Below, one piece after another: positions 47,502-63,556 of a stretch of DNA of 64,000 bases. The translations under genes were made by a program, and so were the position numbers. Every line of letters starts with the position of its first letter. The stretch's first letter is position 1. Location of the stretch: the sequence record HE978309; one strand, given 5' to 3'. This stretch comes from Enterobacteria phage GEC-3S. The notes under the pieces are model-generated. The model was not told where the DNA came from. It saw only the letters and a program-made list of their open reading frames with translations, and searched no databases.

Positions 47502-47836
47502 TTGTAACCCTCCTCTGAAAGCACATCCCAGATCGTTGAGTCAAGGTGCATTAAATTCCACATAATAGAGTCATAACTACCGAAGCCAGAAGTAAAAATT
47601 ACATCACACTGGCGATAGGTCTTATGAAAATCGGTGGCTGTCTCTGCATCAATCGGCATATCGTCACCAGAAAGCACCAGACATTTAAGAATCATAACTC
47701 TGTTAGCCGTTGGCGCTTGCTTAGTCTTTTCAGCATATTTTTCGATGATCCGTTTTGCCTTTTCTTCTTTGATACGTCCAGACCAAATCCGGTTTCGGTA
47801 TTGATTCATAATAATTTCAATCACATCATTTTGCAT
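47498..47836 (-). CDS. hypothetical protein (112 aa)
   Basis: ATG; SD GGAGA. Confidence 0.45.
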   Translation of the reverse strand: MQNDVIEIIMNQYRNRIWSGRIKEEKAKRIIEKYAEKTKQAPTANRVMILKCLVLSGDDMPIDAETATDFHKTYRQCDVIFTSGFGSYDSIMWNLMHLDSTIWDVLSEEGYK

Positions 47837-58795: not shown

Positions 58796-58981
58796 TCAGA
58801 AATATGCAATATAGTTTGCCAGTCCTACAGAGTCATCATTCGGCATTGCTTTTACTGCCAGTTCAAACCCTGCTTCAACTTTCTGTTTAGCGGATTCTTC
58901 GTTATAACCCCAGATTACCAGAATAGCTACTACGTTTTCTTTGCTTACTGCTTTCAGTGCTTTAGTGATGCGACGTGCCAT
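58796..58981 (-). CDS. hypothetical protein (61 aa)
   Basis: leader GGAGAATCAAATTATG. Confidence 0.45.
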   Translation of the reverse strand: MARRITKALKAVSKENVVAILVIWGYNEESAKQKVEAGFELAVKAMPNDDSVGLANYIAYF

Positions 58982-59027
58982 AATTTGATTCTCCGTTTAA
59001 GAAAGTGTGTTTCGTTTCGATGGGTGT

Positions 59028-59056
59028 ATTATGCTATAGGCCGGATCTGGTGTCAA
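59028..59056 (-). promoter_or_regulatory. early promoter (TTGACA-N17-CATAAT)
   Basis: directly downstream of terminator 59090-59107. Confidence 0.5.
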
Positions 59057-59089
59057 CAACTTTTTTAAAAAATTTTAGGCAATAAAAAA

Positions 59090-59107
59090 GCCACTCCGAA
59101 GAGTGGC
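59090..59107 (-). terminator. intrinsic terminator with UUCG tetraloop
   Basis: GCCACUC-UUCG-GAGUGGC + UUUUUUAUU on minus strand. Confidence 0.65.
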
Positions 59108-59245
59108 TTATAGGGAAGGTAGCGAATCTTCCTTGTCTCCAACCTGCTAGCGGCCTAGCAAGTGAATGCTTTAGCGTACCGGATCGCCCACATACGCTGT
59201 AATAAATGCGGCTAGGTGACGTCCAAATCATTCTAACCGCGCTGT
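59108..59245 (-). ncRNA. candidate small non-coding RNA (about 135 nt) from late-type promoter to intrinsic terminator
   Basis: TATAAATA at 59250-59257 then hairpin-rich sequence ending in the terminator; the only ORF here runs through promoter and terminator. Confidence 0.35.
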
Positions 59246-59249
59246 CTTT

Positions 59250-59257
59250 AGTTCACT
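59250..59257 (-). promoter_or_regulatory. T4 late promoter core TATAAATA (exact consensus)
   Basis: immediately after stop of ORF 59259-59477. Confidence 0.4.
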
Positions 59258-59258
59258 A

Positions 59259-59477
59259 TTATTTATATCGCTTTCTCTCGCGACGTTTTTGATCTTCTTC
59301 CTTGATAGAGTTAAATGCATCAAAAAGACACATGACACTGATAATGAACATAACCGTATTTTCTACGATATCCCACGGCTTCGCATCAGTACAGATCCCC
59401 CAAACGGTAAGAAATGCAAATAAGGCAGAAGAGATCACAAGCATGATACTTGCTAAGATATAAAAAGTCATTTTCAT
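59259..59477 (-). CDS. small membrane protein (72 aa)
   Basis: ATGA-coupled. Confidence 0.45.
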   Translation of the reverse strand: MKMTFYILASIMLVISSALFAFLTVWGICTDAKPWDIVENTVMFIISVMCLFDAFNSIKEEDQKRRERKRYK

Positions 59478-60570: not shown

Positions 60571-60599
60571 ATCTTACTACCCCCGTTTCATGTTGTCAA
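60571..60599 (-). promoter_or_regulatory. early promoter (TTGACA-N17-TAAGAT) inside GGGGGTAG/ACCCCC palindrome
   Basis: minus-strand read. Confidence 0.5.
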
Positions 60600-61017: not shown

Positions 61018-61046
61018 ATTATTCTATAGTCGTTTATGGTTGTCAA
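61018..61046 (-). promoter_or_regulatory. early promoter (TTGACA-N17-AATAAT)
   Basis: directly downstream of terminator 61064-61082. Confidence 0.45.
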
Positions 61047-61849: not shown

Positions 61850-62506
61850 TTAAATGTTCGCGAGAATCGCGCTTTCAAATTCTTCTAATGTGCCATTATT
61901 TATAATGATGGTTTCACCGTCAATAGGCAAAATTCCTTTTTCGGTGGAGTGAGTCGATACAATACCAGTATCACGCTGAATATGCAACACCTTAGCACCC
62001 ATAGCACGCATGAGAGCAATTTCAATAGGCTGACGCACATCAACCACTACAAAATACCCTTCTTCATTTTTGCGCTTCATAAACTCATCCACAAATAGAT
62101 TACACCAATAAAGCGGATTGATCAAGTTAACCATTATATCAGTACCGAGAGTGGTTAACATGAGACGAATAGACCAGACGTTATTATGTTTTTCGCCGAT
62201 CTCATTAACGACCTTGTAAATCTCAGCCAGACGATCACAAGTAAAGGAGCTACCGCCATACTTCGAATCTAGCATAAGCAGACACTGAATAAACCACTTA
62301 TGCGCGGTGTAGGTATCAATACCTAGATCGGCTTCTCTGTCACGCCCTAACCCGTCAAAGTCAAGATAAGTCAGACCTAAGTCTGGTTGACATTCGCATA
62401 AGATTTCTTTGATCGGCGCTGCCAGTTGATAACTGTGTCCATCAATGATTAACGCGGCAGTGTCTTTTCCTACTCGCTTTTTACCACAAAGTGCAATCAA
62501 TTTCAT
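61850..62506 (-). CDS. 1: deoxynucleoside monophosphate kinase
   Basis: 218 aa; P-loop GKKRVGKDT; long blocks matching T4 gp1 (LGTD, DVRQ, AMGA). Confidence 0.85.
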   Translation of the reverse strand: MKLIALCGKKRVGKDTAALIIDGHSYQLAAPIKEILCECQPDLGLTYLDFDGLGRDREADLGIDTYTAHKWFIQCLLMLDSKYGGSSFTCDRLAEIYKVVNEIGEKHNNVWSIRLMLTTLGTDIMVNLINPLYWCNLFVDEFMKRKNEEGYFVVVDVRQPIEIALMRAMGAKVLHIQRDTGIVSTHSTEKGILPIDGETIIINNGTLEEFESAILANI

Positions 62507-62521
62507 TATATAAGCCTCTTA

Positions 62522-63112
62522 TTACTTTCTAAAAGCAGGGTGCATAGCTTTAATACCTTCCACCCGCTGACGATCCGCCGCCTGAATTGCTGGGCGAGGA
62601 ACGATCAGTTGGCCATCACGTTCAATGCTCATTGTTTTAAATGGAAGAATTGCAGTACACACCAGAGATTCATGCATATCATCGGTGTATGTTAACTCAA
62701 GTTCCCCCAATTGTGAACACCAACAACCATAAAAGTTAAAGGTGCAAACAATGTTACGGCGTTCATTGTCCATCATGTGAACTTGAACGGCTTCCGGCAT
62801 TGAATCCTTCCACGCTGTGGAGTTACCGTTATTGTAGTCTACTATAGAAAGCATCCATGTGTAAAGGTTTAGATAACTTTCCAAATGCTCATCGACAATA
62901 AACCGGACTACCAACGGGTCAAACTCCACATGACTAGAAGGATAATCAGCAACCGCCAAACCATATTGGCCAGCAACTTGCTTAGTCGGTGGAATGGTTA
63001 TAGCAGGAAGTGTAACACCTTGAGCATTTAAAGTAAAGCCTTTTGTTAGTTGTCCATCTGGAATATTGATCTGCCAGTTGCTAGGGTTAGCATAGTTAAA
63101 GAGATTAGACAT
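62522..63112 (-). CDS. hypothetical late protein (196 aa; T4 gene 3 position)
   Basis: ATG with SD GAGGAA; late-promoter-like AATAAATA upstream; identity not established. Confidence 0.4.
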   Translation of the reverse strand: MSNLFNYANPSNWQINIPDGQLTKGFTLNAQGVTLPAITIPPTKQVAGQYGLAVADYPSSHVEFDPLVVRFIVDEHLESYLNLYTWMLSIVDYNNGNSTAWKDSMPEAVQVHMMDNERRNIVCTFNFYGCWCSQLGELELTYTDDMHESLVCTAILPFKTMSIERDGQLIVPRPAIQAADRQRVEGIKAMHPAFRK

Positions 63113-63132
63113 TACTGATTCCTCAAATGAAA

Positions 63133-63142
63133 ATATTTATTA
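63133..63142 (-). promoter_or_regulatory. possible late promoter (TAATAAATAT, 7/8 match to TATAAATA)
   Basis: about 25 nt upstream of ATG 63112. Confidence 0.3.
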
Positions 63143-63266
63143 ACAATTGTCGCTTTGCGACGTGCCGTAGGCACTGACTACTTTTTAACCGAAACAAATT
63201 TTTATTATTCTAAAGATCTTTCTTCGTTTTGGTTATGTTTTAACCAATAACTATATTTTTATACAG

Positions 63267-63275
63267 TAATAAATA
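63267..63275 (+). promoter_or_regulatory. possible late promoter (TAATAAATA) for plus-strand gene
   Basis: about 26 nt upstream of ATG 63302; SD GAGGA. Confidence 0.3.
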
Positions 63276-63301
63276 AAACGGGTACTATACGAGGACTTCT
63301 T

Positions 63302-63556
63302 ATGACAGAAGACATTTTGTTAAAACTCTATGATCGTTTGGATAACGAATTAGCAACATTGCGGGGTGAAGTTCTCTATTTGTCTAAATGCAATACAGAT
63401 CTGCTTAAGCAGATTGCAGAAAGGGATGATCAAATAAAATCCCTTTCAGGTGCATTACGTGATCGCGACAAGGCATTAGAGATTTTACAGCGTGTTACCA
63501 ATAAGGAAGAATTAAAAGACTTCTTACATGGTTATGCTCATGCCATCGATCTATAA
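63302..63556 (+). CDS. hypothetical coiled-coil protein (84 aa), the only plus-strand gene
   Basis: ATG with SD GAGGA; ends at a bidirectional terminator. Confidence 0.45.
   Translation: MTEDILLKLYDRLDNELATLRGEVLYLSKCNTDLLKQIAERDDQIKSLSGALRDRDKALEILQRVTNKEELKDFLHGYAHAIDL

Follow-up and report, generated by a model that had tools for sequence, protein, structure and literature searches.

Small RNAs (sRNAs) that derive from the 3' untranslated region (3' UTR) of an mRNA and are bounded by its intrinsic terminator are well established in enterobacteria, with CpxQ, SroC, DapZ and MicL as examples. To our knowledge, the characterised sRNAs of phages come nearly all from temperate phages and prophages, and the only named sRNAs of T4-type phages are rnaC and rnaD, known since the 1970s and still without an assigned function. 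The DNA analysed here, hereafter the window, comprises 64,000 nucleotides (nt) of Enterobacteria phage GEC-3S (record HE978309) and belongs to a Krischvirus, i.e., a T4-type coliphage of the RB49/Phi1 kind. On its minus strand, between the homologue of Phi1 open reading frame (ORF) 118 and a cassette of terminator and early promoter (PeSL), it carries a gene-free stretch of about 150 nt at the end of an early operon, hereafter the element (59254-59084). The element is real, unannotated and constrained. We favour, with moderate confidence, the reading that it encodes a functional RNA domain, bounded by the terminator, with which the early dmd-ORF118 transcript ends; this candidate sRNA would act by sequence-specific contacts and may also be made as a late primary transcript. 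An earlier note on the same DNA had proposed a stable RNA with a late promoter of its own; that the stretch is non-coding is borne out below, it is constrained as well, and its few substitutions fit a minus-strand fold up to the terminator, whereas the independent late 5' end is not borne out.

By kind, the putative RNA fits the terminator-bounded sRNAs of the 3'-UTR type. Like these, it lies at the very end of an mRNA, shares the intrinsic terminator and U-tail of that mRNA, and is conserved above its neighbours. Such sRNAs obtain their 5' ends either through processing or from a promoter within the last part of a coding sequence, and the same two origins are candidates for the element. It differs in that it comes from a virulent T4-type phage, not from the host, and is known here from sequence alone. 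It is also longer and more uniformly conserved than the typical sRNA of seed plus terminator, and the usual U-rich stretch before the terminator hairpin is weak (CCCUAUAAG). T4 rnaC (species 1, 139 nt) and rnaD (species 2, 119 nt) resemble the element in being small non-coding RNAs of a T4-type phage, with genes that follow gene 57B at a distance of a few kb on the early strand; this shared position is the point in favour of a common origin. The kinship with the T4 small stable RNAs that had been suggested nevertheless fails on sequence, on the tRNA-like domain and on the tRNA-cluster context. In local alignment the element scored 13 with rnaC (shuffle mean 15.2) and 16 with rnaD (shuffle mean 15.0). 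T4 rnaC has a tRNA-like T-arm (GGGUUCGAAUCCC), whereas no T-arm of the GGUUCGAAUCC type was found in the element, which ends at an intrinsic terminator. The T4 RNAs lie in a tRNA cluster, where rnaD abuts tRNA-Arg, whereas no tRNA gene is present anywhere in the 64-kb window, so that the phrase "near its tRNA region", used of T4 in the earlier note, does not apply here literally.

A 1-kb stretch around the element is matched by 57 phage records at 97-99% identity, and every taxonomy-bearing record among them is a Krischvirus (RB49, Phi1, JSE group). The element itself is found once per genome in all of these matching records (57/57, 96-100% identity) and in nine metagenome or virome loci. None of the matching records annotates an RNA at the gap; one marks the terminator only. 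Variable sites were counted in 20 genomes spanning the whole block. Outside the apex of hairpin H2 (see below), 13 of the 137 sites of the element vary (9.5%), three of them through one deletion alone. The third codon positions of the ORF118 homologue vary at 42 of 72 sites (58%; Fisher's test against the element, p = 7e-14), those of the downstream ORF117 homologue at 16 of 61 (26%; p = 0.004), the PeSL spacer at 12 of 29 (41%; p = 1e-4) and the early promoter at 8 of 29 (p = 0.014). The lineages are old enough for divergence, as seen from the H2 apex, a part of the element in which 58% of the sites are variable. The most divergent genome, a 170-kb metagenome contig, has an element 97-98% and a terminator 100% identical to those of the window, compared with 88% for ORF119, 83% for ORF118 and 78% for ORF116. 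The element changes several times slower than the silent sites of the neighbouring genes, and, as judged from these counts, is shown to be under purifying selection. At 49%, its GC content exceeds the mean of the window (40%) and ranks among the highest 1.8% of 150-nt windows.

The genes at the locus lie on the minus strand. Upstream of the element the gene order is 57A, 57B, ORF125, ORF124, dmd, ORF122-119 and ORF118, and the ORF118 homologue (59259-59477) is the last gene of the early operon ORF124-dmd-ORF122...ORF118. It encodes a two-helix hydrophobic protein of 72 amino acids without a Pfam family. Three successive in-frame stops, of all three kinds, stand at its end (TAA TAG TGA, 59261-59253), and because of them read-through of ORF118 is unlikely. 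In Phi1 the gap between ORF118 and ORF117 measures 278 nt and is the largest annotated intergenic gap between 30 and 66 kb. The distance from the gene stop to the PeSL terminator is about 150 nt at the element, as opposed to 7-19 nt for the other genes of the region. Two promoter-like sites are present upstream on the minus strand, at 61046 and 60599, and from 61083 to 59088 this strand has no terminators other than the two PeSL stem-loops. It follows from this map of promoters and terminators that the early ORF124-dmd-...-ORF118 mRNA has the element at its 3' end in any case. A 3' UTR of the upstream gene, the alternative that the earlier note had named against its own proposal, is the more economical way to make the RNA of the element.

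The intrinsic terminator (59084-59109, stem-loop 59109-59088) has a 9-bp stem, a UUCG loop and a U6 tail (UUUUUUAUU); the UUCG-loop terminator described in the earlier note is therefore present, followed by a run of six T, and it would set the 3' end of the RNA. The tail has at least six U at the 3' end, as in terminator-bounded (Hfq-type) sRNAs. The early sigma-70-type promoter (59028-59056, minus strand; TTGACA, 17 nt, CATAAT) drives the ORF117 homologue and lies outside the RNA. Cassettes of terminator and early promoter have been described in these phages as PeSLs, and they are documented exchange points (PMC2839356, PMC4122927). The terminator (59109-59088) and promoter (59056-59028) at the element make up a typical PeSL, a stem-loop terminator with an early promoter directly after it, and only 59109-59028 belongs to this cassette. 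PeSLs are short, occur many times per genome and have a variable spacer, whereas the 145 nt upstream are single-copy and far more conserved. The gap that holds the element is not mentioned in the PeSL papers (PMC2839356, PMC4122927).

RNAalifold, combined with explicit pair counts, yielded four hairpins plus the terminator. The 5' segment GAACUAAAGACAGC (59241-59254) is predicted to be single-stranded, and its position 59246 is variable (G, A or deleted). Hairpin H1 (59208-59240) has stems of 8 bp and 4 bp and the loop UUGGAC; the stems are invariant and one substitution, at 59221, falls in the loop. Hairpin H2 (59173-59198) has a lower stem of 7 bp and a hypervariable apex (59180-59191) with indels of 1-2 nt. 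Hairpin H3 (59143-59162; CUUGCUAG-GCCG-CUAGCAGG) is invariant, has 8 bp and contains GCTAG...CTAGC. It is followed by the invariant linker UUGGAGACAA (59133-59142), with GGAG at 59137-59140, and by hairpin H4 (59114-59132; GGAAG-9 nt-CUUCC), in which one A-U pair is changed to G-U at 59130. The two hairpins named in the earlier note, GCTAG-GCCG-CTAGC (inside 59143-59162) and GGAAG...CTTCC (59114-59132), are thus both present. An RNA starting at 59254 is predicted to fold with a free 14-nt 5' end followed by H1-H4, while for an RNA starting upstream of 59254 a rival long-range pairing between 59250-59258 and 59120-59129 is predicted. The folding-energy z-score is -3.0 when the terminator is included, a signal owed largely to the terminator itself.

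The substitutions found in the core stems all keep the pairing of a minus-strand RNA. They comprise one compensatory change, from G-C to A-U, and four independent wobble changes; the varying pairs are one compensatory and three wobble-varying pairs in H2 and one wobble pair in H4. In H2, G-C, A-U and G-U are all found at pair 59197/59174, A-U and G-U at pair 59198/59173, G-C and G-U at pair 59195/59176, and G-U, A-U and G-C at an apical pair. In H4, pair 59130/59116 occurs as A-U and G-U. Each wobble change would give an A-C mismatch on the plus strand. Paired cells amount to 99.8% when the element is read as minus-strand RNA and 85.8% when it is read as its plus-strand complement, a comparison biased to the minus strand because the structure was taken from the minus-strand fold and holds invariant G-U pairs. 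That five independent changes all fall on the compatible side, about 1 in 32 by our own estimate, is suggestive and not decisive. In the shuffle control 3-4 of 500 shuffles reached the observed covariation score, which for related sequences is not a strict probability. A minus-strand RNA is moderately supported by these predicted pairs and appears to be the best reading of them.

These substitutions also bear on the possibility that selection acts at the level of DNA, with the inverted repeats GCGGTTAG...CTAGCCGC and TGCTAG-GCCG-CTAGCA serving as binding sites for a protein of phage or host, as a recombination site or as part of a replication origin. Sequence conservation of the element is stronger than the structural evidence, and the motif CTAG(G)CCGC is found in both H1 and H3. 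CTAG is two-fold under-represented in the window (112 observed, 227 expected), and the three copies within 70 nt (59147-59215) are its densest cluster; the cluster is, however, not significant after correction, 0.33 such windows being expected. The element adjoins a PeSL recombination cassette (PMC2839356) but is single-copy and lies outside the repeated PeSL, and its GC-rich composition is unlike that of a DNA-unwinding element. As DNA the repeats are imperfect, whereas as minus-strand RNA they pair by way of G-U, and all five informative substitutions that keep this pairing would break the plus-strand or cruciform equivalent. A DNA site is accordingly judged improbable.

The stretch does not code for protein. 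The only long ORF (59034-59231, 65 amino acids) reads through the terminator and the downstream early promoter, as had been pointed out from the letters alone, and indels of 1-2 nt together with a stop codon in relatives break every ORF. The alignment used for this purpose held 25 copies, among them 15 GenBank genomes chosen across the range of identity and the nine metagenome or virome loci. Many lineages have indels of -1 and -2 nt in the H2 apex (59180-59191; 59185-59191), two lack position 59246, and a TAA falls within the 65-amino-acid frame in an IMG/VR contig (L004). No frame on either strand survives in all 25 aligned copies, and the 65-amino-acid translation matched no Pfam family. 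A shared peptide, LAGWRQG, was considered as the sign of a decayed gene and rejected, the frame being unconserved in the Krischvirus relatives. Inconsistent coding sequences (CDSs) for a "hypothetical protein" are annotated at about 58985-59177 in FL15 (L023), SFHK24 (L024), UPWr_E1 (L026) and Delraymugoa (L030). They differ from record to record, lie on either strand and cross the terminator and the early promoter, and look like artefacts of gene callers.

A tRNA cloverleaf is likewise missing, in agreement with the earlier note. ARAGORN at 80% or more of its default thresholds found no tRNA in the window; at 75% or less, matches were as frequent in shuffled sequences, and the odd calls in relatives came near the shuffled rate. 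The Rfam tRNA model gave no match at the element. The sequence CGGUUAGAAU in H1 resembles the D-arm of E. coli tRNA-Asp, which we take to be a match at chance level; by our own estimate, chance alone would give about 0.5 matches of a 10-mer to some tRNA. We give hardly any weight to the idea that the element hides a small protein, is a decayed tRNA or is a relative of T4 rnaC and rnaD. The first could appeal to ATG 59231, which opens the 65-amino-acid frame in the window, and to the CDSs called in some GenBank records, but the frames are broken in relatives and the calls vary by record. The second is opposed by the ARAGORN and Rfam results, and the third has the location downstream of gene 57B in its favour and alignment scores at the shuffled level against it.

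The late-promoter motif TATAAATA (59260-59267, minus strand) is an exact match to the core of T4-type late (gp55) promoters. The earlier note had placed it right after the ORF118 stop, but it is made up of the last two sense codons together with two bases, the first and second, of the stop (TAT AAA TAA). By the T4 rule, which places the late-promoter octamer at -13 to -6 (PMC1524935), transcription would start at G59254 if the site is used. On this motif would rest an independent sRNA gene of about 170 nt, transcribed solely from the late promoter to the terminator. Such a gene would draw on the exact octamer (PMC1524935), which is kept in 24 of 25 sequences, including three third positions capable of synonymous change in a gene whose third positions vary at 58%, and on the predicted fold of an RNA from 59254, with its free 14-nt 5' end and H1-H4. 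The octamer is not over-abundant in the window, and one of the other two copies (49086-49093), some 30 nt ahead of a gene, has been published as a late promoter. With three copies observed in the 64-kb window and 5.65 expected, however, its presence is not above chance. The site is missing from the 17 predicted late promoters of RB49 (PMC1524935, supplementary file 5), and no late gene lies between the octamer and the terminator. Coding also explains the conservation of TAT AAA TAA (p of about 0.07 for the three third positions), and the segment is transcribed from the upstream early promoters anyway. The one sequence without the octamer (L043, MAVA01000028.1, a metagenome variant) has it deleted, while its element is base-for-base intact except for the H2 apex. 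Since the element is retained there, the late promoter is dispensable for keeping it, at least in the short term. Of the late-promoter 5' end that had been proposed, the exact motif stands and a late start at G59254 may occur, with chance frequency, the published list and the deletion against it; a gene served by this promoter alone is considered quite unlikely.

Two observations on the octamer may be added. In L043 the change at window position 59256-59269 combines a 2-nt insertion in the A-run of ORF118 with a 14-nt deletion, which takes out TATAAATA together with the TAA and TAG stops, so that ORF118 ends at the third stop, TGA. The third copy of TATAAATA in the window (61897-61904, minus strand) lies within a coding region about 80 nt upstream of ATG 61816 and is not in the RB49 list.

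The favoured reading, in which the early transcript carries a functional RNA domain at its 3' end, would work as follows. An early polycistronic mRNA would run from the promoter near 60599 through the homologues of ORF124, dmd and ORF122-118 to the terminator at 59109-59088. Its 3' part (59254-59084, minus strand) would form a functional non-coding domain of about 145 nt, made up of the four hairpins and invariant single-stranded linkers and followed by the intrinsic terminator, whose hairpin and U-tail would protect it. A stable RNA of about 150-175 nt may persist after cleavage from the mRNA, or may arise by late initiation at G59254 from TATAAATA. The tetranucleotide GGAG is the target of RegB, which the phage encodes, and its place in an invariant linker suggests one possible processing step. 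The RNA would act by sequence-specific contacts, in which it may base-pair through its invariant linkers, perhaps with several pairing surfaces, or be recognised by a protein of the host or the phage; such contacts, rather than the action of a generic stabiliser, are suggested because stems and linkers alike are nearly invariant. We infer the discrete stable RNA, the origin of its 5' end, its action in trans and any target. A wider version, in which a trans-acting regulatory or decoy RNA is released from the 3' end of the early operon, expressed again late from a gp55 promoter within the last codons of the upstream gene, and binds a host factor, RNA chaperone, nuclease, defence component or specific mRNAs through its invariant linkers or hairpins, is put forward tentatively and is on the whole doubtful.

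The same position at the 3' end of an operon could serve the mRNA in cis only, with the element governing decay, processing (by RNase E, or by RegB at GGAG) or termination and read-through of the early dmd-ORF118 message. It lies directly before the sole minus-strand terminator between 61063 and 59088, its invariant GGAG falls in a predicted single-stranded linker, and control of mRNA decay matters in this phage because it encodes RegB and Dmd. A protective or processing role, however, needs only a hairpin or a short site, not some 130 near-invariant bases that include both arms of three helices. The other operons nearby stop 7-19 nt short of their terminators and have no such element, and inspection showed no alternative antiterminator that would pair with the terminator 5' arm. 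A role in cis alone is therefore regarded as unlikely. A riboswitch or attenuator was considered and is also unlikely, there being neither an antiterminator alternative to the terminator 5' arm on inspection nor an Rfam match.

Several findings weigh against the favoured RNA domain. When the terminator is left out, the z-score is only -1.8 on the minus strand (29 of 500 dinucleotide shuffles as stable or more) and -0.7 on the plus strand, so the internal hairpins are not thermodynamically exceptional. The informative covariation rests on one helix, H2, and H1, H3 and the terminator carry no structural information because they never vary; in kaaroe, a C>A change at 59164 disrupts one pair of the extended H3 base. 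Complementarity to the element within the 64-kb window is at chance level, the best being 12 nt with about one such match expected, and no transcriptome (RNA-seq) of an RB49-type phage was found in the literature. The known sequences of the element are 93-100% identical and distant homologues were not found. Finally, ORF117 and the element are conserved as one block, so that part of the low diversity could be shared history.

The last point can be extended to the proposal that the element has no function of its own and hitch-hikes in a recently spread block of element, PeSL and ORF117 by PeSL-mediated recombination. ORF117 and the element are 97-99% conserved where the flanking ORF118 and ORF116 are at 78-83% in the same genomes. 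PeSL cassettes are documented exchange points (PMC2839356, PMC4122927), and ORF117 is mobile, since unrelated viruses with genomes of about 50 kb have relatives that share some 80% of its amino acids. Shared recent history of the block does not explain everything, however. Sites of a neutral type in the same block vary far more than the element does (26% at the third positions of ORF117, 41% in the spacer and 58% in the H2 apex, against 9.5%), and the stretch is kept in 57/57 genomes and nine metagenome loci despite the gene turnover of the region. Hitch-hiking without function is thus very improbable.

Searches for known families were made with Rfam 15, which at gathering thresholds gave no match in the whole window. 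At permissive E-values, sub-stretches of 501 nt and 151 nt gave only sub-threshold matches driven by the terminator, the best being RNAI (22.8 of 47 bits) and EF3314_EF3315 (21.5 of 100). ColE1 RNAI (RF00106) resembles the element in having three consecutive hairpins of which the last is a terminator, and the alignment spans the full model. It differs in that generic hairpins account for the match, whose 22.8 bits fall short of the gathering threshold of 47, and that the element has no replication-primer context and no match among the 72,556 plasmids. Among 50,697 phage genomes, BLAST matched the element to Krischviruses and otherwise only through the terminator, over 25-35 nt; among 5,426 E. 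coli genomes it matched the 24-nt terminator only, and among the 72,556 plasmids nothing. Exact and gapped pattern scans of IMG/VR gave two loci only, both Krischvirus-like, and pattern scans of GTDB genomes gave no match to the element. A covariance model (R1), built from the element minus the terminator, was run against the window, the T4 tRNA/rnaC/rnaD region, Phi1 30-66 kb and 16 viral genomes bearing ORF117 (see below), and found the element itself only. By this model the element is single-copy, with no paralogue detected; a 15-bit match at 63303-63447 lies inside a coding ORF and was discarded. The family of the element appears, from these searches, to be restricted to Krischvirus so far.

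A metagenome scan with the 20-mer AGCAGGTTGGAGACAAGGAA of the element gave eight loci, six of which are chance matches. Five of these (L037, L039-L042) lie in large transporter-like ORFs, where the 20-mer encodes the peptide DFLVSNLL, and are unrelated to the element. The sixth (L038) lies in a 102-kb contig, 72 nt downstream of tRNA-Arg, in a 95-amino-acid ORF ending in YRPCKNCKP at its C-terminus, and was rejected as chance. A likeness of H3 to a type I-F CRISPR repeat (TTCACT, hairpin and TT.GA.A) was also judged to be at chance level.

The downstream gene, the ORF117 homologue (58796-58981, minus strand), belongs to Pfam DUF7421 and is conserved together with the element. Relatives with 75-80% amino-acid identity occur in 16 IMG/VR viral genomes of about 50 kb (L007-L022); ORF117 is thus mobile and shared by very different phages, and the covariance model search found the element absent from these 16 loci. 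In phage FL15 the apex of the terminator is inverted at window position 59096-59101 (CTTCGG to CCGAAG), which turns the UUCG loop into CGAA and leaves the stem intact, as a flip between the inverted-repeat arms. Five metagenome contigs (L004, L046, L047, L048, L049) end about 170-250 nt past the ORF118 homologue, at or just beyond the PeSL, and these ends are consistent with assembly breaks at the repeated cassette. Other annotated gaps of more than 170 nt in Phi1 are those at 47529-47702, between ORF084.1 and rI.-1 (about 48190-48370 of the window), and at 62451-62639, between gene 3 and the oppositely oriented ORF130 (about 63115-63300).

The spurious CDS annotations over the element, terminator and promoter could be replaced by a non-coding RNA or regulatory feature. 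The element is kept in every sampled Krischvirus despite the rapid gene turnover of its region, and it is a concrete, easily deleted candidate for control at the level of RNA in lytic infection. If it does act in trans, the rapid evolution of the H2 apex might be due to adaptation to different hosts, and the element would be the first functionally constrained sRNA family for RB49-type phages, rare for a strictly lytic coliphage.

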